Assembly (NCBI GenBank): GCA_963745725.1
Contig: CAVUYJ010000002.1
Location: forward strand, 21,964-85,963
Length of the DNA: 64,000 nucleotides
Direction of reading: 5' to 3'
From: an uncultured Acidobacteriaceae bacterium
GTDB taxonomy: Bacteria > Acidobacteriota > Terriglobia > Terriglobales > Acidobacteriaceae
Shown here: positions 2,592-30,984 of the stretch, one piece after another
Numbering within the stretch: the first letter of the stretch is position 1
How the letters are laid out: the number at the start of each line of letters is the position of its first letter
The notes under the pieces: generated by a model
Told to the model about the DNA's origin: nothing
Databases searched by the model: none
What the model saw: only the letters and a program-made list of their open reading frames with translations
Program-made: the position numbers and the translations under genes

Positions 2592-3812
2592 CTAATTCGA
2601 CTTCCAGATCACCTTGCCGCCACGAATCGTATATCTGACCTTGGTGAACGCCTCCGGGTTCCCCGATGCCGGGTCTTCCGACAGAATCGTCAGATCGCCG
2701 CGCATTCCGGGCATTACCTTGCCTTCGCGCTGCGATAGATGAAACAGCTCCGTCGGGGCCGTCGTCAACATCGCCAGCACCTCGCGAAAGCCAAACCCAG
2801 CCTGCATCAGCTGACGAAATTCCTCGCTCTGGTCGTAATCCGGAAGAAACCCCGTGTCGGTGCCATAAACCAGCCTTCCTCCAAGCTGGTGAAACCGGTA
2901 ATCGAGCCCGCGAATGTTCGCGATATTGTCGTCCCGCGAGAACAGCTTGAGTGTCGGGATGATCGTCATGTGTTGCGCAATCATCCGCCGCAGCATCGCC
3001 TCATCGATTCCACTTGTATCCTCCGGCGTATGCGCCAGAACATCCACACCAGCGTCGATAGCCACTTTCGTCCCCTCAAGGTTTGAGGAATGCGCAAAGA
3101 CCAGCTGCCCATGTCGATGTGCCTCATCGACCGCAGCACGCGCGATCGCCACTTGCATCGGGGTGATGTGGTTGGGACTTACAATCGAACCGGTGAAGAG
3201 CTTTACGATGTCGCATCCAGCCGCTCGGTTTTTATCCACAATGGCCACTGCGTCCGCAGCCGTCTCCGGCTGTGCCATCTTTGCCTTCAATTCTGGCGGA
3301 AGCTCCGCTAAGTAGTACGGCAACGCATGCGCGGGAAAGATAGGGATGCCCGCGGTAAATATGCGCGGTCCCGGGACTTCGCCGCTGTCTACGCGCCGCC
3401 GCAGTGCAATCGTGTTCTCCCCGTCCGAGCCGGTATCGACCACTGTCGTAAAGCCCGAGTGCGTGAGCATCTCGCTCATCTGGCGTGCCAATTTATCTGC
3501 GGGCTGGTTCGCGGCTTCGTTCCACTGCGGCTCCATGAAATGCACATGCGCATTCCAGAAACCGGCAAGCACAACGCAGGCTTGGCAGGAAATCGTCTCC
3601 ATGCCCTTGGGGATGCGCAGATGCTCCCCAACCCCCGCGATCACTCCATGACGGATCACGATGGTTACGTCCCTCCGCGCCGGCGCGTCTGGGGCGGCGT
3701 AGACAGTGGCGCGCGTGATCGCTAGATCCTGTGCTCGACCAATAGCCACCGGACCGGCCAGGAATAAAACAAGGACAATAGCTCTGATACACAAGACCCT
3801 GATCATCGACAT
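2592..3812 (-). CDS. amidohydrolase-family metallohydrolase, secreted
   Basis: 406-aa ORF with signal peptide MSMIRVLCIRAIVLVLFLAGPVAIGRAQ. HxH metal motif in GFWNAHVHF, with later AHS / GTDTG motifs typical of amidohydrolases. Confidence 0.8.
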   Translation of the reverse strand: MSMIRVLCIRAIVLVLFLAGPVAIGRAQDLAITRATVYAAPDAPARRDVTIVIRHGVIAGVGEHLRIPKGMETISCQACVVLAGFWNAHVHFMEPQWNEAANQPADKLARQMSEMLTHSGFTTVVDTGSDGENTIALRRRVDSGEVPGPRIFTAGIPIFPAHALPYYLAELPPELKAKMAQPETAADAVAIVDKNRAAGCDIVKLFTGSIVSPNHITPMQVAIARAAVDEAHRHGQLVFAHSSNLEGTKVAIDAGVDVLAHTPEDTSGIDEAMLRRMIAQHMTIIPTLKLFSRDDNIANIRGLDYRFHQLGGRLVYGTDTGFLPDYDQSEEFRQLMQAGFGFREVLAMLTTAPTELFHLSQREGKVMPGMRGDLTILSEDPASGNPEAFTKVRYTIRGGKVIWKSN

Positions 3813-10600: not shown

Positions 10601-11228
10601 CCAAACCCGAAAGTAACCTCTGGCCTTGTACCCCTGTGCCGAAAAGAATCGTCCAGCCATTTACATCTAACTCGGAAAAGCTTTATCTCTTAAGGTAGAC
10701 GATATCGGCAGGCGACGGCTCCTCACGCAACCGCGCCCTGGCCGGCAGTTGCCTGCAGTTTCGGCCTTCCGCGTGAGCCAAGGATAGTTTCACCACTATC
10801 CGGTGTCTCAACCTATCCCTGTCACAAATAACCAACAACAGCCACGGTTGCCTACCGCGGTTCTCAACCCTTTCCGTCACGAACACAGCAGCAGACAAAA
10901 TCATCCCAATCTCCAGCAAACCGAGGAACGAGACGACCTATGCCCAAAAAAAACTGCCTGCCCGCGGTGCCGCAGGTCACCGATCCCATCACCGATCAGG
11001 AAATCGCCTTTGCTCACCTGATCCTTTCCCGAACCAAACCAGCCCTCTCAATCCCTATCAAGCCCGAAGCCCTGAACCGCGTTCCCGCCGCAACCGGCAT
11101 GATTTTTGACGCCGTCCTGGATAGAGCCAACCCCATCAGGCTGTCCTTCTCCCCAAACGGACGCTTCTCTGGGCGGCGGCGCTGAAGCCATAAAAAGACC
11201 AAATTTTATCGAATTTTATGAAATATCG
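10601..11228 (-). repeat. conserved intergenic element, copy 1 (candidate structured sRNA), interrupted by a 291-nt insert at 10890-11180
   Basis: 10601-10889 and 11181-11228 align with 21101-21424 at roughly 85-90% by eye. Strand assigned from GNRA loop and G-U wobble arguments (see findings). Confidence 0.6.
10940..11185 (+). CDS. hypothetical 81-aa ORF inside the insert (doubtful)
   Basis: A GAGGAACGAG box lies upstream of the ATG. The stop codon is supplied by the flanking repeat, so this may be a gene fragment. No family recognised. Confidence 0.25.
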   Translation: MPKKNCLPAVPQVTDPITDQEIAFAHLILSRTKPALSIPIKPEALNRVPAATGMIFDAVLDRANPIRLSFSPNGRFSGRRR

Positions 11229-11278
11229 AGGTGACTGATCACATGAGCACCTGCGAATTGTCGCTATCGCCGCGAAAT

Positions 11279-21007: not shown

Positions 21008-21100
21008 CGGCGGACATTTCGGGCGGACAGTTGAGCCGAAGTGCCCGGGTACCCACAAAAGCCGTCCTGTCACCCATTTTGTCCCCTGCCAACGCGCATA

Positions 21101-21424
21101 CCAACCAGAAGTAACCCGGGCCTTGTAGCGAAAAAAATCATCTAGCCACTTACATCTAACTCAGAAATGCGTTATCTCTTAGAGTAGACGATATCGGAAG
21201 GCGACGGCTCCTCACGCAACCGCGCCTTGACCGGCAGTTGCCTGCAGCTTCGGCCTTCCGCGTGAGCGAAGGATAGTTTCACCCCTGTCCGGTACTGCAC
21301 CCTACCCCTGTCACAAAATAATCAACGACAGCCACGGCTGCTTGCCGCGGCTCTGCCCCTTCTGTCACTAACACAGCGCTGAAGCCATAAAAAGGCCAAA
21401 TTTTATCGAATTTTATGAAATATC
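21101..21424 (-). repeat. conserved intergenic element, copy 2 (uninterrupted; candidate structured sRNA)
   Basis: Aligns with copy 1. Contains nested hairpins (plus coords ~21212-21266 and ~21332-21350) and the AT-rich box aaattttatcgaattttatgaaatatc at 21398-21424. Confidence 0.6.
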
Positions 21425-21474
21425 TCGCTCGTTCACTCGAACCAAGGCAGGATCCAGCTCTGTCTGCCCACACC

Positions 21475-30759: not shown

Positions 30760-30885
30760 AAACCAAAAGTAACCCCCGAAGGGGTAAGCCCCAGAGTTAG
30801 AAAGACGTCCCGGCACTTACATCCGATCGCTACTGTCGTCGCCCCAAAGAACCCCAAAAGATCGAATTTTATGGAATTTTACAAA
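30760..30885 (-). repeat. conserved intergenic element, copy 3 (short form: both ends, minimal core)
   Basis: Shares ccaaa.gtaaccc..., ..gcacttacatc and the AT box atcgaattttatggaattttac with copies 1 and 2. It lacks the ~250-nt hairpin core. Confidence 0.45.
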
Positions 30886-30984
30886 AACCGACGGAAATAT
30901 GGGGGAGATCAAGGGCCGCATACCTGCAGCAACTCTGGGCGAAAAAGCCCCTGCTATTGCTCCTTTTCCGTTCTCACACGAACC

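Follow-up and report, generated by a model that had tools for sequence, protein, structure and literature searches.

The window, that is, the whole 64,000-nucleotide stretch of DNA that was analysed (C2:21964-85963 of the 9.0-Mb assembly G000 of an uncultured Acidobacteriaceae bacterium), carries three copies of an intergenic repeat on its plus strand. Two of these had been recognised in the original prediction, and the intergenic repeat is real, with 87-98% identity between 21101-21424 and 10601-10889 plus 11179-11227. In a repeat search of the window, 10632-10828 paired with 21121-21317 (87% over 197 nt, ungapped) and 11179-11227 with 21376-21424 (98%), and a whole-genome BLAST search recovered the pair formed by copies 1 and 2 with an E-value of 7e-79. 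The extent of 21101-21424 first given for copy 2 was too narrow, as its homology to other copies runs from ~21050 to ~21440. Likewise, both copies originally listed are present, but there is also a third, shorter copy at 30760-30890, in which the repeat search detected a weaker third AT box (30842-30890). The features of the three copies are listed below.

10601..10703, plus strand: left part of copy 1 (homology to other copies).
10704..10826, plus strand: candidate structured leader core of copy 1 (model R1, 133.3 bits, E = 8.4e-33).
10827..10939, plus strand: C/A-rich linker of copy 1 with the Shine-Dalgarno sequence GAGGAA (sequence, alignment).
10940..11185, plus strand: 81-aa in-frame stub of a small-terminase-like (TerS-like) ORF in copy 1 (tblastn to family residues 6-23 and 192-257).
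11179..11233, plus strand: stop codon, AT box and right end of copy 1 (repeat match, alignment).
21050..21192, plus strand: left part of copy 2, with mosaic left-end block CCCCTGCCAACGCGCATACCAACCAGAAGTAAC, A-tract and a conserved CACTTAC...TATC stretch that could hold a promoter (homology from -51 relative to 21101; consensus of 78 loci).
21193..21315, plus strand: candidate structured leader core of copy 2, with P0, P1, H3, P4, P5 and the possible pseudoknot Pa, three consensus pairs being broken (model R1, 121.9 bits, E = 7.6e-30, plus strand).
21316..21375, plus strand: C/A-rich linker remnant of copy 2, with the deletion junction AACACAGC to GCTGAAGCC (alignment with intact copies).
21376..21440, plus strand: old stop codon (TGA 21380-21382), AT box GCCAAATTTTATCGAATTTTATGAAATATC and right-end tail of copy 2 (98% identity to 11179-11227; right limit +338).
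30760..30890, plus strand: copy 3, of another subfamily, of which only a left block (AAACCAAAAGTAAC, hairpin CCCCGAAGGGG, GGCACTTACATC) and the AT box GATCGAATTTTATGGAATTTTACAAA are left (subfamily of the copy at C3:940176).

Inspection of the sequence confirmed the small indels between copies 1 and 2, the CTCACGC...GCGTGAG stem, the GCAG-TTGC-CTGC hairpin and the AT box (TTCATAAAATTCGATAAAATTTGG in the minus sense) that had been pointed out. The view that the conservation is non-coding was also supported, the minus-strand ORF over the AT box being an artefact. The deletion in copy 2 took the Shine-Dalgarno sequence and the whole ORF and ends 6 nt before the old stop codon; to its right, homology to the flanks in the relatives G019 and G001 begins at ~21470. 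The stub in copy 1 retains ~30 N-terminal and ~45 C-terminal residues, the DNA-binding domain having been deleted. The segment 10890-11180 of copy 1 was also considered as a foreign insertion, which was rejected: it is a remnant of the unit's own ORF, while copy 2 has a deletion. Copies 1 and 2 score 133 and 122 bits with the core model, as compared to 134-150 bits for intact copies, and both carry broken pairs. Judged by their sequences, the window copies thus appear to be relics, which no longer encode a full protein and accumulate pair-breaking mutations, as would be expected of such relics. The three relics (10601-11233, 21050-21440 and 30760-30890) lie ~10 kb apart within 20 kb, compared to ~22 copies in the 9-Mb genome, and this stretch may be a hotspot or island. 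The window also contains a near-identical segmental duplication that is unrelated to the repeat unit (7517-7816/15268-15567, 99%; 8848-9109/15795-16056, 95%).

That the repeat belongs to a multi-copy family, as had been proposed, was borne out by BLAST, which found ~21 core copies in the assembly, each with an AT box on the same strand 0 to ~1000 nt downstream. The interval between core and AT box holds a plus-strand ORF in most of these ~21 copies, and the AT box is 0.8-1 kb away from the core in ~15 of the 21 and in nearly all of the more than 100 loci found in relatives. As read from these copies, the intact unit starts, on the plus strand, with a left block that has an A-tract and probably holds the promoter, and continues with a 5' leader of ~250 nt. 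The first ~125 nt of this leader would form a conserved multi-helix structure, followed by a C/A-rich linker with GAGGAA. The 3' part comprises an ORF of ~250 aa, whose stop codon is immediately followed by a box of phased A/T tracts that hardly varies (AAAAAGCCAAATTTTATCGAATTTTA). An all-against-all BLAST comparison of 13-kb neighbourhoods showed that the homology among the 21 copies is limited to ~1.3 kb and that their flanks are unique. The bounds are equally sharp in 78 loci of other genomes, where they lie ~330-400 nt before the ATG and ~60 nt after the stop codon, and the leftmost 60-120 nt of the unit are mosaic among subfamilies. At some loci of relatives (L061, L087, L094, L102, L116 and L120), insertions of ~200-700 nt between the core and the ATG break up the leader. 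The supposed sRNA gene is, therefore, the upstream leader together with the downstream AT-rich box of a repeat unit that normally bears a small-terminase-like gene.

The unit was found only in the genus of the present genome, an uncultured group of soil Acidobacteriaceae. Of 24 genomes sampled from this genus, 17 contained the core, each in 3 to 14 or more copies, and the 16 sampled from the sister family had none. A profile of the ORF found no match among 200 genomes that represent 100 other genera of the class, and among 300 genomes of 132 genera the covariance model of the core gave none but a single borderline match (E = 0.0099). At least 408 loci were found in GTDB representative genomes, and all 79 of the 79 loci kept carry Acidobacteriaceae MAG titles. 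In a collection of 5.8 billion proteins, the family accounts for 3717 clusters; those with a name are labelled 'hypothetical protein', and no cluster contains a Pfam domain. No neighbouring gene is common to all copies, and the recurrent families, namely PadR-like, large permease-like and very large secreted or receptor-like ORFs, are inconsistent. A literature search on the repeat unit found nothing relevant.

Comparison with relatives showed how individual copies have come or gone. The copy at C8:286423 is absent from G245 and G014, where its flanks, at 85-92% identity, are separated by 400 and 90 nt as compared to 1746 nt, and G245 also lacks the copy at C7:315331 (188 nt versus 1312 nt). 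The copy at C5:447198, on the other hand, is shared with G245 at the orthologous site (87.6% identity over 2041 nt). With empty orthologous sites for two copies and a filled one for the third, gain or loss affects the unit as a whole and takes place over times in which species diverge. It has the many copies, the unique flanks and the presence or absence at orthologous sites that generally mark dispersed or mobile elements, and it is probably a mobile, genus-specific unit. The left junctions are ragged (-23 to -56 relative to 21101) and the one readable right junction is sharp (+1187 to +1189). No terminal inverted repeats were found, the ends being asymmetric, and no target-site duplication was present at the two empty-site junctions that were read, both of which are blurred by other small repeats. 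A transposase or recombinase is also lacking, as the sole ORF of the unit has no catalytic domain and there is no longer master copy among the 21 and 79 loci. Further flank searches in relatives recovered one flank per site at most.

By its own account, the original prediction would have been refuted if the copies turned out to be ends of a known IS or MITE with target-site duplications. They are indeed the ends of a repeat element, but one that corresponds to no IS or MITE described so far, and no duplication of a target site was seen. In that they keep their ends and lose their interior, the window copies resemble MITE-like internal-deletion derivatives, of which there are several independent ones. 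In contrast to MITEs, neither terminal inverted repeats nor target-site duplications nor a transposase partner were found for the unit, and the junctions differ, with no single amplified subfamily.

Other repeats occur in the vicinity of the units. A REP-like palindromic repeat (GTCCCGCAGGGACGGCTGAACTTAGCCCAGGACGCAGTCCTGGG) flanks several of them (G000 C8:~285000-285400 and C7:~315240; L157, L174), and the insertion junctions are blurred because it also fills the 'empty' sites in relatives. A high-copy repeat of ~145 nt (GTCATCCTGAGCGCAGCGCATCGCAGATC…GGAGTCGAAGGACCTC) is found in the right flank of the C7:315331 copy (G000 C7:~316960-317110); there are dozens per genome in the genus, with many loci in G003, G014 and G020, and it often adjoins TerS-like units. 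The right flank of the C4:1611614 copy contains, on the minus strand, a tRNA-Leu-like 3' fragment with a long variable arm (...GGGGGTTCAAGTCCCCCTCCGGGCACCA; G000 C4:~1612900-1612990, L003 ~2790-2880). ARAGORN called no gene there, and the fragment may be what is left of the att site of an integrative element.

The ORF of the unit encodes 180-310 aa (typically ~250), starting with MPKNTV(T/N)DPITDQEMAFA... and usually ending with ...PFSIKRGPFGRRR (RGPFGRRR). It is preceded by GAGGAA-N7-ATG, and a few bases separate its stop codon from the AT box downstream. Sequence-profile searches in Pfam, NCBIfam, PADLOC and PDB assigned it to no family, and an exhaustive HMMER search with the N-terminal domain yielded 524 representative clusters, of which the best 150 all belonged to the same family without a bridge to any named family. 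In PHROGs there were weak matches (E = 0.013-0.42) to four TerS families, and all named matches were terminase small subunits. The AlphaFold (AF2) model is confident over residues 11-120, with pLDDT values of 85-96 over residues 11-90, and consists of three short helices, a helix of 44 residues and one further helix, the C-terminal half being disordered. The best Foldseek matches in the PDB were 2ao9 and the DNA-binding domain of SF6 G1P (4zc3/2cmp), with TM scores of 0.70-0.74 normalised to the target and modest E-values, and the best among the viral models of BFVD were terminase small subunits (E = 1e-4). As modelled, the protein is predicted to have a helix-turn-helix (HTH) and a long helix, followed by a Pro-rich, disordered tail with a basic C-terminus; by its predicted fold it is TerS-like, outside any TerS sequence family.

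Directly after the stop codon, the box AAATTTTATCGAATTTTA, which follows a run of A, is almost invariant in ~75 of 79 loci of relatives. With their spacing of ~10 bp, its A/T tracts show the pattern of intrinsically bent protein-binding DNA, and scans matched the box to no promoter or terminator consensus. We infer that the AT box may serve either as a bent-DNA site for the HTH protein of the unit (pac-like) or as the 3' end signal of the unit. Tandem pairs of AT boxes 140-215 nt apart (G000 C1:11052/11256, C4:1589711/1589871, C6:537681/537825 and C7:164075/164289) and solo AT boxes without a core (G000 C1:339930, C6:386087 and C6:710479) also occur. Past the AT box, the right-end tail (ATATCCCGCTCACTTCACTCGGATAAAACC) of many units, for example at L065 ~3290-3330, has a minus-strand hairpin UAUCCG...CGGGAUA followed by UUUUGUAAAAUU. 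This hairpin resembles a terminator and might stop transcription that enters from the flank; a simple terminator scan made no call.

The arrangement is reminiscent of TerS genes with their pac sites, as in SPP1/SF6 G1P or the TerS of SaPI/PICI elements. The likeness lies in the N-terminal HTH with a long helix behind it, which matches 2ao9 and SF6 G1P in fold, in the conserved A/T-tract site beside the gene, and in a dedicated conserved region upstream. Unlike these systems, however, the present protein belongs to none of the TerS sequence families, with PHROG E-values of 0.01-0.4, and has a long, disordered C-terminal half. Moreover, the unit stands alone in 14-21 copies per genome, none of them within a prophage; no gene for a large terminase (TerL) adjoins the copies, and the present genome has no TerL of the families PF03237 or PF03354. 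Viral relatives of the ORF were found neither on IMG/VR contigs nor in GenBank phages.

The core itself is well conserved. Over 63 loci, column identity was 0.83-0.91 in the core, 0.92 at codon positions 1 and 2 and 0.82 at position 3 of the ORF, and 0.65-0.74 in the linker between core and ATG. The 123-nt core is thus more conserved than both the linker and third codon positions, which indicates constraint beyond shared ancestry. Its structure was read on a family alignment of 74 sequences, in which six helices were distinguished.

P0: GGCAGG/CCUGUC, the closing stem.
P1: CUCACGC/GCGUGAG.
H3: GCCG/CGGC.
P4: GGAUAG/CUAUCC.
P5: GGUG/CACC.
Pa: GGCG(A)CGG/CCGCGCC, crossing P1 as a possible pseudoknot.

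In this alignment, 92.2% of the cells pair, as compared to 32-45% when partners are slid. Cells with double changes numbered 61 versus 19.3 +/- 3.6 in shuffles (0 of 500 shuffles reached this), that is, three times the shuffle mean, although it should be noted that relatedness among the sequences inflates this test. Nine pairs show double changes, a count that was reached by 18 of 500 shuffles. The compensation involves AU/GC in P1, UA/CG in P4, and the replacement of GCCG/CGGC in H3 by UCCG/CGGA, CUCG/CGAG or GCCCC/GGGGC. A conserved secondary structure with some compensatory changes, as had originally been suggested, is therefore supported by the family alignment, and the covariation of this multi-helix core exceeds the controls to a modest extent. 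Two other pairings, H1 (CCGG-N6-CCGG) and a GGCCG/CGGCC stem, were rejected in favour of H3, since the TCCG/CGGA, CTCG/CGAG and GCCCC/GGGGC variants compensate for H3 alone. In three relatives (L107, L110 and L132), an insertion of 17 nt duplicates hairpin H3 (GCCCCCAGTTTGGGGC GCCGCCAGTTCGGGGC), so that the core evidently tolerates a second H3 hairpin.

Two details on which a minus-strand RNA had been proposed are not shared by the family. The GCAG/CUGC hairpin with its 'GNRA' loop is confined to the two window copies, and 69 of 72 other aligned sequences have GCCGGTAG or variants that are unable to form the hairpin. Similarly, the GGCC/GGUC difference, which had been taken as a minus-strand wobble, sits in a stem that the family does not keep.

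No known RNA family was recognised in the core. The Rfam search that had been recommended was carried out with Rfam 15 (4227 models, including Acido-1, Acido-Lenti-1, riboswitches, 6S and the bridge and omega RNAs) and gave no match in the whole window at gathering thresholds and noise alone at E <= 10 around copies 1 and 2; a scan for tRNA and tmRNA found none. Acido-1 and Acido-Lenti-1 are comparable as phylum-restricted candidate structured RNAs from comparative genomics, but the core matches no Rfam 15 model even at E <= 10. A further parallel is offered by the IS110 bridge RNA, the IS605/IS200 omega RNA and HEARO: here, too, a conserved structured non-coding segment of 120-250 nt lies beside the only ORF of an element that is short, present in many copies and confined to a lineage, with no obvious role in ordinary regulation. 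In contrast to these, the ORF of the present unit has no recombinase or nuclease domain, and the core has no Rfam match to these families.

Alignment-fold energies were uninformative on which strand the core would act (-68.6 on the plus and -65.3 on the minus strand, and -81.6 and -81.7, respectively). When the six helices are read in the plus sense, they contain 150 G.U versus 77 A.C. One G.U in P0 is kept in 67 of 74 sequences, and a pair in P4 runs through the series UA (31), UG (24) and CG (18). P1 shows the opposite pattern (AU 34, GC 22, A.C 17 and no G.U), which would fit the minus strand or DNA. When the plus strand was folded by minimum free energy, five of six intact copies yielded the architecture read from the alignment, whereas the minus-strand folds vary from copy to copy. 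Decisive, in our view, is the context: the plus strand is favoured because it is on this strand that the ORF lies downstream of the core, with an unstructured C/A-rich linker and a Shine-Dalgarno sequence in between. The core is thus likely to be a sense-strand structured 5' leader of the TerS-like gene, presumably acting in cis as RNA within the mRNA of the ORF. A plus-strand transcript would begin near AGACGATATCGG and continue into the ORF. Scans of the window copies and an intact unit for sigma-70 promoters and intrinsic terminators gave nothing above shuffles, so that the transcription start, and with it any transcription of the core itself, is putative.

The role of such a leader would most likely be regulatory or stabilising, and it would perhaps be bound by the encoded protein. 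By analogy with autoregulatory leaders, such as those of ribosomal-protein genes, which likewise place a conserved structured 5' UTR before the gene for a nucleic-acid-binding protein, we hold an autoregulatory leader bound by its own product to be the most likely mechanism. The difference is that the protein of the present unit is, by its predicted fold, an HTH DNA-binder.

The main alternative, which we consider rather unlikely, is that the core hairpins and the AT box act as DNA, serving as binding, bending or recombination sites for the TerS-like protein or for a recombinase encoded elsewhere. The unit would then depend on them in cis for being copied, moved or packaged, hence their retention by deletion derivatives. 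Indeed, all six ORF-less or ORF-poor derivatives in this genome retain both end regions with different deletion junctions. However, copies were found by a search with core and AT box, so that copies without both were invisible to it. The near invariance of the AT box with its ~10-bp spacing of A/T tracts and the presence or absence of whole blocks at orthologous sites also agree with DNA sites, as does the finding that the helices show departures of the G.U and the A.C type alike. In addition, small terminases, such as those of SPP1/SF6 and P22, bind sites within or beside their own genes. Against this reading stand the ragged left ends, the lack of detected terminal inverted repeats or target-site duplications, and the exact 5' UTR position of the core ahead of an unstructured C/A-rich linker and Shine-Dalgarno sequence. 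Furthermore, the conserved G.U in P0 and the UA/UG/CG series in P4 would be expected of RNA and not of duplex DNA.

A more far-reaching and decidedly unlikely proposal is that the unit is a minimal selfish module, composed of leader RNA, TerS-like protein and a pac-like phased A/T site, which spreads via phage DNA packaging in the genus or interferes with it. Packaging could then, for example, be seeded from ~20 chromosomal sites, or the protein could serve as a decoy TerS, and the leader would silence the gene until a phage late signal.

It is very unlikely that the core has no function, its conservation being due to recent duplication and its structure to chance in GC-rich DNA. Such a view could draw on the youth of the family (70-90% identity), on the fact that the majority of pairs are invariant or change on one side alone, and on the weak folding of single sequences on either strand (z-scores of just -0.7 to -2.0). 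However, it accounts neither for a core that is more conserved than the linker and third codon positions, nor for the excess of pairing over slid partners and the threefold excess of double changes over the shuffle mean.

Finally, the reading of the original prediction itself, a stand-alone structured minus-strand sRNA that starts just downstream of the AT box as promoter or UP element, is the least probable, being unsupported by the ~15 of 21 copies in which a plus-strand ORF with its own Shine-Dalgarno sequence separates the core from the AT box. In its favour, the AT box abuts the core in copy 2 and has two TAAAAT hexamers on its minus strand, the A.C in P1 (a G.U on the minus strand) recurs in 17 sequences, and the alignment folds equally well on that strand. 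However, the AT box touches the core in deletion derivatives alone, so that its adjacency in copy 2 is a deletion artefact; in intact units, where the box is ~1 kb off, the transcript would be antisense to the whole ORF. Besides the hairpin and wobble that the family does not keep, the overall wobble bias is towards the plus strand, there is no conserved -35 element because the flank past the AT box is unique, and a promoter and terminator of its own bracketing the structure were not found on either strand.

We return, therefore, to the leader as the preferred reading: 21101-21424 is probably an ORF-less, decayed copy of a dispersed, genus-specific unit of ~1.3 kb, the core of which would act in cis as a sense-strand leader RNA. 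For annotation, the three intergenic repeats of the window are thereby explained. The family to which they belong is new to Pfam, NCBIfam, PADLOC and Rfam and has thousands of members in soil metagenomes, and it combines a structured, RNA-like leader outside Rfam with a solitary gene for a terminase-like DNA-binding protein and an AT box that scarcely varies. Should the leader prove to be a functional RNA, it would represent a new cis-regulatory or mobile-element-associated motif. If the protein truly acts on DNA packaging, the family would bear on DNA exchange or phage resistance in uncultured Acidobacteria.
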